Virus record (IMG/VR): IMGVR_UViG_3300045988_041365
Direction: 5' to 3' (one strand)
From: a virus
Length of the DNA stretch: 5,066 nucleotides
Shown here: positions 1 to 5,066 of the stretch, one piece after another
Numbering within the stretch: position 1 is the stretch's first letter
Layout of the letters: every line of letters begins with the position of its first letter
Notes under the pieces: model-generated
Database searches by the model: none
Told to the model about the DNA's origin: nothing
The model's input: only the letters and a program-made list of their open reading frames with translations
Program-made: the position numbers and the translations under genes

Positions 1-212
1 CGCTGATGAGCAGTATTAGACATCATCGCCTGCCAGTTTCGATTATTAGCGGCCTCATTTTGATTAAACATCATCGCTTTAGCATTTTGCTGCTCTTGCC
101 AATCACGCTGTATAGTAGCCTGCTGAGCAGACCAAGCATTATTTGCCTGAGCAACGCCCTGCATAGATGCAATCTGATCAGAAGCAGAATGAAGAGCCGA
201 GTTAATATCCAT
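1..212 (-). CDS. VP2: VP2 minor capsid / DNA pilot protein, N-terminal portion. It continues from the window end across the circular junction; 1..95 duplicates 4972..5066.
   Basis: The frame is continuous with ORF 4260..5045 through the terminal redundancy. Upstream of the track's ATG at 74 (=5045) the frame stays open to an ATG at 212..210. That ATG has AAGGAG 7 nt upstream (minus strand gaAAGGAGtgtatttATG). The ATG at 74 has no SD. The extended N-terminus reads MDINSALHSASDQIASMQGVAQANNAWSAQQATIQRDWQEQQNAKAMMFNQ... The full CDS is about 307 aa (4260..5183 in circular coordinates). Confidence 0.6.
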   Translation of the reverse strand, partial: MDINSALHSASDQIASMQGVAQANNAWSAQQATIQRDWQEQQNAKAMMFNQNEAANNRNWQAMMSNTAHQ

Positions 213-257: not shown

Positions 258-1934
258 TTAGTGATGATCAATAAGACCGGGAATAGAATACATCGGCATA
301 GGCCGCGTTGCACGATTCTTGATGTAAATATCAGCAAAAAGCTGATTAGAGACAGTAGACTTAACAGCAAGGACACGGTCTACAGTATTCTTATCTTCAC
401 GAATCCAAGAAGCAGACAGAGCAGGGAGTTTGTCATAATCATCAGCAAGATGCCAAACATCGAGAGACTGAGCATAGGAAGAACGCATTTCACCGGTGAC
501 GCGGTTTGGCTTATATCGATAATCAGACCAAGCTTCCTGATAACCAAAAACCTCATCGTCAGCTTTAGTACCCTGAGCAAAAATTTCCTTGTTCTTGACA
601 GCCTGCTCACCAATATTAGCAAAAACAGGCCAGTAGAAATCAAAGCGCGTCTTACGCGACCAATGACGCTCAATACCCTGCTGGTAAGTATGATCATAAC
701 GGGCAACCATGACACCGATAATATAACCGTGCTCCGTAAAGCTCTTGATGAAATCAGCGTGAGAATCAGTGGTTTGAGACATACCAACAACAGTACCCTG
801 AGGAGTATCAGCACCAGCACCAGTACCAGACTGCTGTATAACCTGATTCACATTGATAGGAATACGATTGCCTCCAAGATATTCGGGACGCTGCAGACGG
901 GCGTCAGGAGAAGTAACGCCAAAATGAGACTTGAGAATCTCAATATAACGGGTACCACCGCGAGCATCACGCTCGTAAAGCTTCTGAATCTGAAAAGCCA
1001 TTCGCAGCTGGTTAATAGTAGCGACAATAGCATTACCAGAATTCAAAGCAAAAAGATTGGACGGAATTCCAGCGATAGAATTGTCAGTAGCAGGAGAAGT
1101 ACCATCGGCATAAAGGGCAGTAGAACCGCCAGACGAACCAGCACCATAACCAGCTTTCAACTGACCCTGAAAAATAGCATTACCAACACCTTTCCAACGT
1201 AAGGGAGTATTCAAATCCTGTCCAGTCAGAGCATATCCATCGAGCGGAACAACAGGAAGATTGCCCTGAGCGGCAACAGAAAGAGTTACATCAGGGCCTT
1301 TCTGAGGGCTGGGAAGACAGCTCGTGAAATAATCATGATACTTAGCAGCAATATAAGGCTTACCGCCTTTTGCAACATCTGAAATAAAAGTACCAGAATT
1401 AACACCCTGAACAGTAGCATCATCGACAGGAACAACGAGAGGATCCTGCAGATTCTGATCACGGAACCACTCATTCATGACGAGCGCATAAGCTCGAAAC
1501 GGAAGAGCACTAACAGAAATACCCTCAACACCAGTCGGAAGACCGAAATAATCAGCCAAAGTACCAACAGACCAGCCACCGGAAGGAGAAGTAATCTGCG
1601 GAATACTATACTCAGTTTGCGGAAGCCAAGCAGATTCCGTATTTTCTCCGTTAAACTCTTTCCAATGATTCCAAACAAGTCGATTCGGAACAAAGAAATA
1701 ATACGTATCCAGATAAACGTTATCCATCATAGGAGTAAGCAAAGTCTGCATACGTACTACTTTCGAAGAGGTAACATTGAAAGTGTCTCCGGGAAGGACT
1801 TCTTCGAGAAAGAAAGGGATAATGTCACCGACATTAAACGAAGTTTTAATAGAAGCCGAACGATCAAAAGTAGATCGACTCATATCAATTCGAGTCGGAT
1901 TTAAAGCAAAATGAGATTCAACATTACGATTCAC
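258..1934 (-). CDS. VP1: Major capsid protein VP1 (Microviridae F-protein family), 558 aa, GTG start.
   Basis: The N-terminus MNRNVESHFALNPTRIDMSRSTFDRSASIKTSFNVGDIIPFFLEEVLPGDTF matches the conserved gokushovirus VP1 start (..RS.FDRS..K..F..G.L.P....EVLPGDTF). The first in-frame start after a TAA is a GTG at 1934..1932, with GGAGG 9 nt upstream. This is the largest ORF in the window and ends at a TAA at 258..260. Confidence 0.9.
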   Translation of the reverse strand: MNRNVESHFALNPTRIDMSRSTFDRSASIKTSFNVGDIIPFFLEEVLPGDTFNVTSSKVVRMQTLLTPMMDNVYLDTYYFFVPNRLVWNHWKEFNGENTESAWLPQTEYSIPQITSPSGGWSVGTLADYFGLPTGVEGISVSALPFRAYALVMNEWFRDQNLQDPLVVPVDDATVQGVNSGTFISDVAKGGKPYIAAKYHDYFTSCLPSPQKGPDVTLSVAAQGNLPVVPLDGYALTGQDLNTPLRWKGVGNAIFQGQLKAGYGAGSSGGSTALYADGTSPATDNSIAGIPSNLFALNSGNAIVATINQLRMAFQIQKLYERDARGGTRYIEILKSHFGVTSPDARLQRPEYLGGNRIPINVNQVIQQSGTGAGADTPQGTVVGMSQTTDSHADFIKSFTEHGYIIGVMVARYDHTYQQGIERHWSRKTRFDFYWPVFANIGEQAVKNKEIFAQGTKADDEVFGYQEAWSDYRYKPNRVTGEMRSSYAQSLDVWHLADDYDKLPALSASWIREDKNTVDRVLAVKSTVSNQLFADIYIKNRATRPMPMYSIPGLIDHH

Positions 1935-2421
1935 TTACATTCACCTCCTGTTTCATTTCATGAACAACGGGCGCATCAACCTGCGGAGCATCGACCACAG
2001 AATGTTCGACCATGCCCAACTTCTCCAGCCAATCGTTAGATCCGGACTGGGATAGGAACTGCTCGAACGAACAATCAAACTTCTGCCGAACTTCCAGCGG
2101 CAACGACTTGAACATCTCTTCACATTCATTAATCCTATTAAGCGCATCGGCCATATTGGTCGGAAAATCGGTTACATCTGCATAAAAGCCCTGAGCACGG
2201 GAAAGGGCTTCAGTATCGCCATTGGCAAAACGGGCGAGAATAACGTTGATATCGACACTATCAGCAAAGGACTGAATATAAGCATAAAGATCTTCAGTGC
2301 CTTTTTCCTCAAGAACAACACGTCCATTTGCATCATAGCGACCGGAGTACAGCTGCTTAACGCGAGAACCAGAGCAAGGATGAATACGTTCACGCGGGGA
2401 ATACTGGGTTTTAAACTCCAT
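1924..2421 (-). CDS. VP3: Internal scaffolding protein VP3-like, 165 aa.
   Basis: The ATG at 2421 has AAGGAGG upstream. The protein MEFKTQYSPRERIHP...YSGRYDANGRVVLEEKG...LPLEVRQKFDCSFEQF resembles gokushovirus VP3 scaffold proteins, and its position immediately upstream of VP1 fits. Its stop overlaps the VP1 start by 11 nt. Confidence 0.7.
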   Translation of the reverse strand: MEFKTQYSPRERIHPCSGSRVKQLYSGRYDANGRVVLEEKGTEDLYAYIQSFADSVDINVILARFANGDTEALSRAQGFYADVTDFPTNMADALNRINECEEMFKSLPLEVRQKFDCSFEQFLSQSGSNDWLEKLGMVEHSVVDAPQVDAPVVHEMKQEVNVSES

Positions 2422-2620
2422 CTTTCAAATTAGCCTCCTTTAATTTAACATCATCAAAAGCAAAAGACTGATCGAGCATACGCTCATCAACGCTTCCATC
2501 CGGACGAGCAAAACGATCATAGACAATATCAAGGAGATCATCAATCAGATCAAGAAGCCGATCCTTGGAAAAAGTCTTGCGAACGAAAGCCACAAAAATA
2601 ACAAGAAGTTTATCCTTCAC
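2411..2620 (-). CDS. Small acidic hypothetical protein, about 69 aa, GTG start.
   Basis: A GTG at 2620..2618 is preceded by GGAGG with 9-nt spacing (tgcttcGGAGGtgttgcgccGTG). The product VKDKLLVIFVAFVRKTFSKDRLLDLIDDLLDIVYDRFARPDGSVDERMLDQSFAFDDVKLKEANLKDGV has mixed, non-repetitive composition, unlike the L-rich frame artefacts elsewhere. It fills an otherwise 190-nt gap in a compact genome. It overlaps the upstream ORF by 11 nt and VP3 by 11 nt, the same geometry as the VP3/VP1 junction. Confidence 0.5.
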   Translation of the reverse strand: MKDKLLVIFVAFVRKTFSKDRLLDLIDDLLDIVYDRFARPDGSVDERMLDQSFAFDDVKLKEANLKDGV

Positions 2621-2864
2621 GGCGCAACACCTCCGAAGCATCAGCAACAACAAAAGGAACAGGCAACACCTCACAGACACCAGAATCGGTATCAAACGAG
2701 GCCAACTTGAAGAGGGAAAAATCATTGGGATGAGAATTGAGCAAGGAATCAGGCTGATTAACAGCATGTTCGAAATTACGGAGAGCAGACGCATCATTAG
2801 CGTCAACAGTCGGGGTCATAAAACCAGTCTTTGCGTCCTTGATAGCATACATACCCAATTTCAT
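2610..2864 (-). CDS. Conserved-looking small protein, 84 aa; possibly the VP5-like nonstructural protein of gokushoviruses.
   Basis: The ATG at 2864 has GGAGG 9 nt upstream. Its ATGA start/stop overlap with the upstream J-like ORF indicates translational coupling. The protein is MKLGMYAIKDAKTGFMTPTVDANDASALRNFEHAVNQPDSLLNSHPNDFSLFKLASFDTDSG... No homology search was possible. Confidence 0.6.
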   Translation of the reverse strand: MKLGMYAIKDAKTGFMTPTVDANDASALRNFEHAVNQPDSLLNSHPNDFSLFKLASFDTDSGVCEVLPVPFVVADASEVLRREG

Positions 2865-2974
2865 AGTCTAATACCTCCACGAAAAATTTTAGGTGCAATG
2901 TTAATCTTTTTCGATTTTGCCGCAGTACGGCGGAAAATCTTGTTGTCAAGCTTGGGTGGATTTCTACGTCTCAT
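2861..2974 (-). CDS. Small basic DNA-binding protein, 37 aa; analogue of phiX174 J and of gokushovirus ORF8.
   Basis: Not in the supplied ORF track because it is under 60 aa. The ATG at 2974..2972 lies 1 nt after the Rep TGA and has AAGGAAG 7 nt upstream. Translation is MRRRNPPKLDNKIFRRTAAKSKKINIAPKIFRGGIRL. It is strongly basic (13 of 37 residues are K or R), and its hydrophobic C-terminal RGGIRL resembles the ...RGGIRF ending of Chlamydia-phage ORF8 (recalled, not searched). Its stop TGA overlaps the ATG of the next ORF as ATGA. Confidence 0.6.
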   Translation of the reverse strand: MRRRNPPKLDNKIFRRTAAKSKKINIAPKIFRGGIRL

Positions 2975-2975
2975 G

Positions 2976-3944
2976 TCACAACTTCCTTTCAAGAGATTTT
3001 ATCTTATCAGTCAAGGCTTGTTCCTCGACGGCAAGACGATCATATCTGTCCAAAGATGTACGAAAATCCTTGGCTTCCTCAGCAGCAGCAGCTAAACGAT
3101 GACGAACGGCTTTAGCCTGCTTCATCTCATCGGGATGATCAATGTCAAATAAACGATCATAATAACGAGGAGGACGAAACTTCAAACCACCAACATCAGT
3201 GCCAAGATTGATGTATTCATGCTGATACAAATCTGGATGATCATCATAATACTGACGAGCGATTCCGGGTTTCCGGGACATACGAACAAATTCCGGTACA
3301 AGATTCAAATCCGAATACAGAGAAGCATCCTGACCTTTAAGCTTTTTCATAACATATCGAGCAGTATAAGCGCAAGATTCCCAAGTTACGGCGCCGACCA
3401 CAACAAAGCCGAGACCCCAACACTCAGTAAGAGAATCACTAATGAAATAATCATAACCTTGGGGGGAACGTTTGTAGGGTCGCAGATCATCGAGAGACAA
3501 TCCAAAAATAATTGAGTGATAATGAGGGCGAGCAGTAGTAGAGCCATACTCGCCACAGGCAAAGTACCGAATGTGATCATCTGGGTGAGCCTTTCTTAAG
3601 CGTTTCCAAAACAATTCCAAATCACGAGGTCTTAGCGTCAAAGCAGGAGCAGCCTCCCCATCATCATTGATAGCATAAGCAGTACGAGGCACGTGATCGT
3701 CATCATAAGTCAACGTCACAAACCAAGATTCCTTATGATACTGTAGCTCAAGCATACAGCGGTTAGCCCATTGACGGCTATACTCGAGCCGGCAACCAAT
3801 ACATTGACCGCAGGGGAGCTGCAAGCGCTGCCACGAGGGATAGACCTCGCTGGCATGCTGGCCAGACAATATTTTGATATTGCGTTTTCCATTAGCTGTC
3901 CTTCCAGGGAGAATAACAGCTTCCAAAGGATGATAGCACGGCAT
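2976..3944 (-). CDS. VP4: Rolling-circle replication initiation protein VP4 (HUH endonuclease superfamily I; phiX174 gene A family), 322 aa.
   Basis: The protein starts MPCYHPLEAV. Motif I is FVTLTYD, the HUH motif is PHYHSIIFG, and the catalytic double tyrosine is AYTARYVMKK (YxxxY). The ATG at 3944 has an AGGTGAT SD. The stop is a TGA at 2978..2976. Confidence 0.9.
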   Translation of the reverse strand: MPCYHPLEAVILPGRTANGKRNIKILSGQHASEVYPSWQRLQLPCGQCIGCRLEYSRQWANRCMLELQYHKESWFVTLTYDDDHVPRTAYAINDDGEAAPALTLRPRDLELFWKRLRKAHPDDHIRYFACGEYGSTTARPHYHSIIFGLSLDDLRPYKRSPQGYDYFISDSLTECWGLGFVVVGAVTWESCAYTARYVMKKLKGQDASLYSDLNLVPEFVRMSRKPGIARQYYDDHPDLYQHEYINLGTDVGGLKFRPPRYYDRLFDIDHPDEMKQAKAVRHRLAAAAEEAKDFRTSLDRYDRLAVEEQALTDKIKSLERKL

Positions 3945-3949
3945 AACAT

Positions 3950-4070
3950 CACCTACTTTATTTATACTATATAGTATTTTTTATTTTTTTCAAGTATATA
4001 TTATATTTTTTATTATATTTTTTTTATTATTATACTAATCTATACTACTACAAGATAGGTATAGTTAGCG
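3950..4070 (-). promoter_or_regulatory. AT-rich putative promoter/operator region upstream of rep.
   Basis: About 85% A+T. On the mRNA strand TTGAAA lies at plus 3988..3993, followed 16-18 nt later by TATAGT/TAGTAT and then about 20 nt to the rep ATG. A 12-bp perfect palindrome TACTATATAGTA at 3965..3976 overlaps the -10 region. Three TATACTA copies lie at 3963, 4031 and 4041. The promoter assignment is inferential. Confidence 0.3.
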
Positions 4071-4090
4071 TGCTAATCTCCATCTTTGGT

Positions 4091-4154
4091 GTCACTCAGC
4101 ACAGTTACATCAAGAGAGTAACTGTGCTGAGTGACCGGCCGCGATACGCGGCCG
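4091..4154. repeat. Two adjacent stem-loops: an 18-bp perfect inverted repeat (4091..4108 / 4118..4135, loop 4109..4117) and an 8-bp all-GC hairpin (4136..4143 / 4147..4154, loop ata). Candidate replication-origin or primosome-assembly structures.
   Basis: gtcactcagcacagttac-atcaagaga-gtaactgtgctgagtgac is a perfect 18-bp stem. cggccgcg-ata-cgcggccg is an 8-bp GC stem. Both lie in the only sizeable non-coding region. Confidence 0.45.
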
Positions 4155-4195
4155 AGGTGATCAACGAAACTGCATACCATTTTGGCAAGGAGTGC

Positions 4196-4241
4196 AAAAA
4201 AGAAGCGGAGCTTGGCGCAGGGGCGCGACTCGCTTCGCTTC
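4196..4241 (-). terminator. Rho-independent terminator downstream of VP2, at the end of the polycistronic unit. It also reads as a hairpin plus T5 on the plus strand.
   Basis: The mRNA strand reads GAAGCG(aagc)GAG-tcGCGCccctGCGCcaag-CTCCGCTTC followed by TTTTTT, about 20 nt after the VP2 TAA. On the plus strand the same hairpin is followed by cctttttaaaaaag. Confidence 0.6.
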
Positions 4242-4259
4242 CTTTTTAAAAAAGAATTT

Positions 4260-5066
4260 TTACTTTTTGTAAAGACGGAACGTACCAGAAAAATCCTTGA
4301 AATACGTACGACCGTCAGAACCACGATACAAAACATCCTTATTACGACCAACACCAGAACCATATGCACCAGCAATAGGCGTAAAAGTCTTACGGCCTTG
4401 ATACTCACGATCATAACCAAAAGACCGACTACCAGACGAACCAGAAGACGAACCACCATAATTATTGTTGGTGGTAGTACCACCATTATAATTAAAAACA
4501 TCAGGCCGCCGAGCAGCAGCAGCGGCTACCATAGCAGCATCACGACCGGAAGCAATACCACGATCAGTAGCCATCTGGGCAACAGCAGTCGCAGCACGCT
4601 CAGCAATACCCGCCATATCAGACACAAAGCGTTTATCGCTGCCATAGCGAGAGGCTTCAGAAGACTTATCTGCACCATAGCGCGAGGCCTCAGCCTGAAT
4701 ATCGGCAACAATCCGAGACATAGCAGTATACTTGTCAGCGACAGCTTCCTGAGTACGAGCATTGATATTAGCGGCCTCAATCTGAGTATTGGCAGCAAGG
4801 ATAGAACCAAGCAAGTTTGCAATAGCACCGTTGGCAGACATATCAGTTTCACCTTTGGCACCTTGAGAGGTCACACCTTGAGCAGTTGCACCGGAACCGA
4901 CAGAAGCGCCGTTTCCATTCATAGCAGAAAGCACAGGGTTCAAACCAGCCGCCATCAAATCACGAACTTCACGCTGATGAGCAGTATTAGACATCATCGC
5001 CTGCCAGTTTCGATTATTAGCGGCCTCATTTTGATTAAACATCATCGCTTTAGCATTTTGCTGCTC
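4260..5066 (-). CDS. VP2: VP2 minor capsid / DNA pilot protein, C-terminal portion including the stop. It is truncated by the window edge and continues circularly into 1..212.
   Basis: The protein is Gly/Ser/Ala-rich, with a ...REVRDLMAAGLNPVLS... motif typical of gokushovirus VP2 and the C-terminal end ...GRTYFKDFSGTFRLYKK. The stop is a TAA at 4262..4260. It follows VP1 in the canonical order. An internal 33-nt imperfect tandem duplication encodes EASRYGADKSS / EASRYGSDKRF. Confidence 0.85.
   Translation of the reverse strand, partial: EQQNAKAMMFNQNEAANNRNWQAMMSNTAHQREVRDLMAAGLNPVLSAMNGNGASVGSGATAQGVTSQGAKGETDMSANGAIANLLGSILAANTQIEAANINARTQEAVADKYTAMSRIVADIQAEASRYGADKSSEASRYGSDKRFVSDMAGIAERAATAVAQMATDRGIASGRDAAMVAAAAARRPDVFNYNGGTTTNNNYGGSSSGSSGSRSFGYDREYQGRKTFTPIAGAYGSGVGRNKDVLYRGSDGRTYFKDFSGTFRLYKK
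4972..5066. repeat. Terminal redundancy: a 95-nt exact copy of positions 1..95. It marks linearisation of a circular 4,971-nt genome.
   Basis: Direct base-by-base comparison of the window start and end: cgctgatgagcagtattagacatcatcgcctgccagtttcg...ttgctgctc is identical at both ends. Confidence 0.95.

Follow-up and report, generated by a model that had tools for sequence, protein, structure and literature searches.

The small basic protein VP8 (ORF8) of gokushoviruses has been placed by cryo-EM of SpV4 and phiEC6098 within the virion, with its C-terminus on the capsid protein VP1 and its N-terminus on the single-stranded DNA (PMC11281519). In SpV4, the last residue of VP8 sits buried in a hydrophobic part of VP1 close to the two-fold axis, hydrogen bonds and salt bridges link the C-terminal and middle stretches of the protein to VP1, and the N-terminal residues are ordered in DNA-filled particles only; in phiEC6098, the last 10 residues alone are ordered (PMC11281519). 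The four C-terminal residues are structurally conserved between VP8 and phiX174 J, and in both they occupy an equivalent buried capsid pocket (PMC11281519). As SpV4 VP8 is found in empty capsids too (PMC11281519), its packaging role may differ from that of phiX174 J. VP8 has been treated as a conserved gokushovirus gene (PMC7062461, PMC9239249), and the record of the phiMH2K protein describes it as a "putative DNA binding protein ... similar to phiX174 J".

The locus considered here, a frame of 37 codons at 2861..2974 in a stretch of viral DNA of 5,066 nt (IMG/VR record IMGVR_UViG_3300045988_041365; hereafter the window, meaning the whole stretch that was analysed), is best read as the VP8 (ORF8) gene of a gut-type gokushovirus, whose product would have the DNA-binding, capsid-anchored role suggested by its homologues and by the J analogue; a probability of about 0.92 is given to this reading. 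Nucleotides 1..95 of the window are identical to 4972..5066; the assembly is therefore circular with redundant termini, and the true length of the genome is 4971 nt. All recognisable genes, as judged by PHROG and Pfam matches, lie on the minus strand, and the features of the window are as follows:

4260..5045 and beyond, minus strand: VP2-like pilot protein (matches to pilot-protein PHROGs)
3945..4259: intergenic region of 315 nt between VP2 and rep
2976..3944, minus strand: VP4 replication initiator (rep), 322 aa (phrog_942, E 6.8e-131; Pfam REP_ORF2-G2P, E 4.2e-18)
2982..2988, minus strand: Shine-Dalgarno-like AAGGAAG, ending 7 nt upstream of the VP8 ATG
2861..2974, minus strand: VP8/ORF8, 37 codons and stop (phrog_10695, E 5.8e-7)
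2610..2864, minus strand: VP5 (Phage_ORF5), 84 aa (Pfam PF20577, E 5.6e-26; phrog_1670, E 7.5e-27)
2411..2621, minus strand: ORF of 69 codons, with no Pfam or PHROG match
1924..2421, minus strand: VP3 scaffold (Chlamy_scaf)
258..1934, minus strand: VP1 capsid protein (Phage_F)

A VP4-VP5-VP3-VP1-VP2 arrangement has been described for gut gokushoviruses, and the order in the window agrees with it (PMC3394797); besides VP8, the genes of the window are those of gokushovirus VP1-VP5 on one strand, and VP8 shares this common coding strand. The intergenic region contains a perfect 18-bp inverted repeat (4091-4108 / 4118-4135), directly adjoined by a GC-rich 8-bp hairpin (4136-4143 / 4147-4154), and these hairpins could be candidate origin or priming signals. 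It also holds an imperfect 23-nt inverted repeat (4196-4218 / 4225-4247), which, followed by a T-run (minus strand) just after the VP2 stop, looks like a terminator, and an AT-rich block (3960-4040) with a promoter-like TTGAAA-16-TATAGT on the minus strand at 3993..3966, just upstream of rep. The 69-codon ORF at 2411..2621 starts with GTG and shares sequence with the 3' end of VP5 as well as with the 5' end of VP3. Close relatives (L029, L009, L008, L003, L028, L007, and L030) conserve ~45 residues at its N-terminus (KDKLLxIFVAFVRKTFxKxRLLDLIDDLLDIVYDRF), and L032, L035, and L036 have a gene call of 69 aa for it; the MG945xxx records carry it without annotation.

The VP8 frame opens with an ATG at 2974..2972 of the minus strand, is translated as MRRRNPPKLDNKIFRRTAAKSKKINIAPKIFRGGIRL, and closes with a stop at 2863..2861. 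The stop codon of rep, a TGA, occupies 2978..2976, so that a single base (2975) separates it from the VP8 ATG, and the 30 nt upstream of that ATG end in cttgAAAGGAAGttgtgac. The Shine-Dalgarno-like AAGGAAG sits within the codons that close rep (E R K L stop), and nearly all relatives carry AAAGGAAG, AAAGGAG, or an AGGAG motif at an equal distance from the VP8 ATG. At its 3' end, CTATGA, the VP8 stop overlaps the ATG of VP5 (2864..2862) as ATGA, and the GGAGG of the VP5 ribosome-binding site falls in the VP8 codons for R-G-G. These signals, including the ATG preceded by AAGGAAG, the 1-nt distance from the rep stop, and the ATGA overlap with the following gene, had been described in an earlier note made from the sequence, and they can be read directly from the window; so can the basic peptide with an RGGIR(F/L) ending that the same note reported, given that the 37 residues of MRRRNPPKLDNKIFRRTAAKSKKINIAPKIFRGGIRL include 13 K+R and one acidic residue (D), for a net charge of +12, and close with RGGIRL. 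Among all ATG-initiated ORFs of at least 30 aa in the six frames of the window, VP8 is by far the most basic. The program-made ORF list gives a 43-aa version of the frame that begins at a TTG at 2992, but this longer version was rejected: the upstream in-frame residues vary freely, and a stop lies 1-2 codons upstream in relatives (L001, L007). Because the stretch upstream is non-conserved and interrupted by stops, ATG 2974 is taken as the start of VP8. The gene forms a cistron of its own, served by a separate Shine-Dalgarno site and tightly packed between rep (VP4) and VP5. Given this packing, translation of VP8 is probably coupled to that of both neighbours, as the 1-nt gap, the ATGA overlap, and the location of Shine-Dalgarno sites inside the preceding genes suggest.

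The family to which the peptide belongs was established by comparison with PHROGs, with reference phages, and with solved structures. The window peptide matches phrog_10695 (E 5.8e-7), which is likewise the sole PHROG match of Chp2 ORF8 (5.8e-19), the phiMH2K protein (8e-8), and phiEC6098 VP8 (1.9e-10). When a profile built from the clade only (A2) was aligned with a profile of reference VP8 proteins (A3), hhalign returned 97.9% with an E of 3.4e-13 and all 38 columns aligned; judged by these profile comparisons, the window VP8 is homologous over its full length to VP8/ORF8 of Chp2, phiMH2K, and phiEC6098. A profile that includes intermediate relatives (A1) matches PDB 8DES chain E, the phiEC6098 "Putative DNA binding protein", at E 4.3e-9, whereas the same chain is reached marginally by the single peptide (phmmer against PDB sequences, E 0.47) and by the clade-only profile (E 0.15); given these marginal direct scores, it is through intermediate sequences and profile-profile comparison that the link to a structure is made. 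Across 15 aligned sequences that run from the window clade through intermediates to type phages, R2, F14, and R32-G-G-I-R36 are invariant. The C-termini are RGGIRL in the window, phiMH2K, and phiEC6098 and RGGIRF in Chp2, in keeping with the conservation of RGGIR(F/L) for which the earlier note had proposed to look; under genetic code 4, the ending of SpV4 VP8 reads RGGRRF. A Pfam-A scan of the VP8 peptide returned no family at E <= 1, the phiX174 J family (Microvir_J) included, and among NCBIfam models none matched the peptide. The proposal of a J/ORF8-like packaging protein therefore stands for its VP8/ORF8 half, through phrog_10695 and hhalign, and is not borne out as to kinship with J, for which Pfam gave no hit at E <= 1.

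By analogy with these homologues, and given the identical C-terminal motif, the VP8 of the window is most likely present in the virion, where it would bind both VP1 and single-stranded DNA. The K/R-rich N-terminal and central two thirds of the peptide (residues ~1-25, with 10 K/R) would bind the phosphate backbone of the genomic single-stranded DNA and neutralise it while the DNA is being packaged into the procapsid. At the other end, the invariant RGGIRL would anchor VP8 to the inner face of VP1, with the terminal L37 buried in the hydrophobic pocket of VP1 near the two-fold axis, and such anchoring, presumably with a single VP8 for each VP1, would tether the DNA to the shell. The best-surviving alternative accepts the peptide as a real member of the VP8 family and assigns it in this clade a main role other than structural DNA binding, either as a regulatory nucleic-acid-binding peptide expressed with rep or as a host-acting factor. 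Such a role would suit the position of VP8, which is flanked by the replication genes VP4 and VP5 and does not adjoin the structural genes, the PHROGs label of "unknown function" for phrog_10695, and the occurrence of SpV4 VP8 in empty capsids as well (PMC11281519); it is nevertheless improbable, as every clade member has RGGIRL, the very tail of phiEC6098 VP8 that is seen bound to the capsid, and as the window holds no other small basic candidate, VP8 exceeding every other ORF in basicity by a wide margin. The structural, DNA-binding reading of VP8 is accordingly preferred.

The relatives used for these comparisons were gathered in three ways, namely by rep homology in IMG/VR, from GenBank phage records, and by look-up of the exact peptide. 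In distant relatives whose rep is 34-40% identical, VP8 lies directly upstream of rep (L021 127-243, L024 2877-2999, L025 775-897, L026 702-818, and L027 2881-2997), and phiMH2K and Chp2 (L004 3516-3632, L005 3010-3144) also have it directly upstream of rep. Since VP8 is upstream of rep in these distant relatives and downstream of it in the window clade, the gene has changed sides of rep during gokushovirus evolution. The junction between rep and VP8 is itself variable: in L001/L002 the two genes overlap by 4 nt, in the window 1 nt separates them, and L008-L016 have longer gaps. A more far-reaching proposal, which is tentative and on the whole doubtful, holds that VP8 moved into the rep-VP5 slot, that termination-reinitiation would couple its synthesis there to the translation of Rep, in place of a late structural-gene programme as for phiX174 J, and that the clade core DxKxFRRTAAKSKKIN may line the capsid interior like the mid-section of SpV4 VP8. 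If true, Rep-coupled synthesis of VP8 would amount to a different timing or dosage logic for a DNA-packaging peptide.

The close abutment of the two genes, with only 1 nt between the rep stop and the VP8 ATG, would also be compatible with a peptide made as a C-terminal extension of Rep, via frameshifting or readthrough at the rep stop. The chance of this is very slight: in nearly all relatives a separate ATG serves VP8, preceded at canonical spacing by a Shine-Dalgarno site, the junction differs among relatives such that no fixed frame relation to rep is conserved, and VP8 is found upstream of rep in Chp2, phiMH2K, L021, and L024-L027.

Evidence that this separate frame is coding comes from the relatives. 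Every collected locus spanning the region contains, on the rep strand, an ORF of 37-44 codons that ends in RGGIR(L/F/M) followed by a stop, and within the clade the length and the RGGIRL-stop ending are the same. The 23 members of the clade carry 21 distinct nucleotide sequences and only 10 distinct peptides, and the variable columns at codon positions 1/2/3 number 16/11/34 in these 23 related genomes. Nei-Gojobori-type counts against the window give pN/pS values of 0-0.33 in the VP8 frame and of more than 1 in the two other sense frames. Pairwise, the window differs from L003 by eight synonymous and no non-synonymous changes in VP8, and from L008 by 17 synonymous and two non-synonymous changes (binomial 1.7e-9). 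Both L008 and L009 lack the ATGA overlap as well as the GGAGG and still encode RGGIRL; as the tail is kept despite the loss of both elements, the constraint acts on the protein and not on the VP5 ribosome site. The VP8 frame is therefore coding and under strong purifying selection. Conservation of the frame in relatives, which the earlier note had proposed as a check, is borne out, and neither loss of the frame nor a non-coding substitution pattern, the two outcomes that were to count against the claim, was found among them. The reading of 2861..2974 as a non-coding spacer, conserved on account of the VP5 ribosome-binding site and start and of the rep end, with an incidental frame, would draw on the shortness of the ORF, the VP5 GGAGG within the RGG codons, and the overlap of the VP8 stop with the VP5 ATG, but it is already refuted by the substitution pattern, given that 34 of 36 third-codon positions vary versus 11 second positions, that pN/pS is 0-0.33 in the VP8 frame only, that L008 and L009 keep the peptide after losing both GGAGG and overlap, and that distant relatives encode the same peptide elsewhere, upstream of rep.

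An antisense ORF of 176 codons (2565..3095, plus strand) spans VP8 and parts of rep and VP5, and over the 114 nt of VP8 no clade member has a stop in this antisense frame. As a candidate for the gene at this site, the 176-aa plus-strand ORF was rejected, since the substitutions fit the minus-strand frame only and all recognised genes are on the minus strand; most likely it arises as a side effect of codon usage in the sense genes.

With respect to annotation, VP8 is a known core gokushovirus gene, and its recognition here is correct but ordinary. A tblastn search with the VP8 peptide matched 896 phage records, 572 of them at a coverage of at least 80%, and nearly all of these are faecal or gut microviruses. 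In 60 matching records sampled across this spread, ~33 have no feature at the locus, 14 carry a "DNA binding protein", and ~13 a hypothetical or nonstructural protein. The nearest genomes, MG945407, MG945570, and MG945586 (97-100% peptide identity), contain the ORF without annotation, and in MG945407 and MG945570 the unannotated ORF encodes the exact 37-aa sequence; gene calls for this exact sequence already exist on many public contigs of ~5 kb, from the pig gut and from other metagenomes. In the Dulem, bajarodmic, and Sigmofec records, a 114-nt CDS labelled "DNA binding protein" is preceded by the "replication initiator protein" and followed by the "nonstructural protein" (VP5), and hundreds of GenBank microvirus records annotate VP8 as a "DNA binding protein". 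The earlier remark that such genes are routinely missed is thus about half right, being apt for the ~33 of 60 sampled records that lack a feature, and too sweeping for the Dulem, bajarodmic, and Sigmofec viruses, in which the gene is annotated.

The label itself has been applied to two different proteins. In phrog_1670, in Roux et al. 2012, and in the OP97193x records (e.g., OP971937), "DNA binding protein" denotes VP5; in the Dulem/bajarodmic records (e.g., PP511358), it denotes the 37-aa VP8, and VP5 is there the "nonstructural protein". VP5 is unrelated to VP8 though it is often given VP8's name. The value of the finding lies mainly in annotation hygiene, as a core structural gene is missing from the MG945xxx and KT264xxx feature tables, and a reliable rule for its recovery can be stated: a basic ORF of 35-45 codons that ends in RGGIR(L/F/M), on the coding strand and next to rep. 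The finding raises no new biological question.

Among the known systems compared with the window VP8 are the J proteins of phiX174, G4, and alpha3, which, like it, are small and very basic with a hydrophobic C-terminus and which are packaged with the single-stranded DNA. Sequence similarity between phiX174 J and the window VP8 was not detected (Pfam, E <= 1), and the path of the J N-terminus inside the capsid differs from that of VP8 (PMC11281519). What is J-like in the window peptide is its composition and its hydrophobic C-terminal residue, and the structural equivalence has been reported for other VP8 proteins only (PMC11281519); phiX174 J is an analogue of the window VP8 and not a demonstrated relative.

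The likeness to the VP8 proteins of Chp2, phiMH2K, phiEC6098, and SpV4 is closer. All are extremely basic and of similar size (37 aa in the window, 38-44 aa in the references), the reference gokushovirus proteins have F14 and a T-A motif in common with the window peptide, and they carry RGGIR and a hydrophobic residue right before the stop, as the window does; they also share its PHROG family and are encoded on the same strand as the other genes of a VP1-VP5 genome. Outside the tail, type VP8 proteins have just 30-42% identity to the window peptide, and a strongly conserved core, D-x-K-x-FRRTAAKSKKIN, sets the window clade apart from them. The nearest annotated counterparts are the 37-aa "DNA binding proteins" of the Dulem, bajarodmic, and Sigmofec viruses (e.g., XCD03442.1 in PP511358 and XCD07165.1 in PP511760), which are of equal length and 75-81% peptide identity, with minor changes mostly at residues 3-9 and 27-29; their gene occupies the same slot, after the replication initiator and before the ORF5-type "nonstructural protein", and its junctions overlap likewise. 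In Chp2 and phiMH2K, VP8 is directly upstream of VP4, a position that is typical of the family without strictly defining it, whereas in the window and its clade it lies between VP4 and VP5, directly downstream of VP4, and this gene order is the sole structural departure, and a mild one, from the type gokushoviruses.
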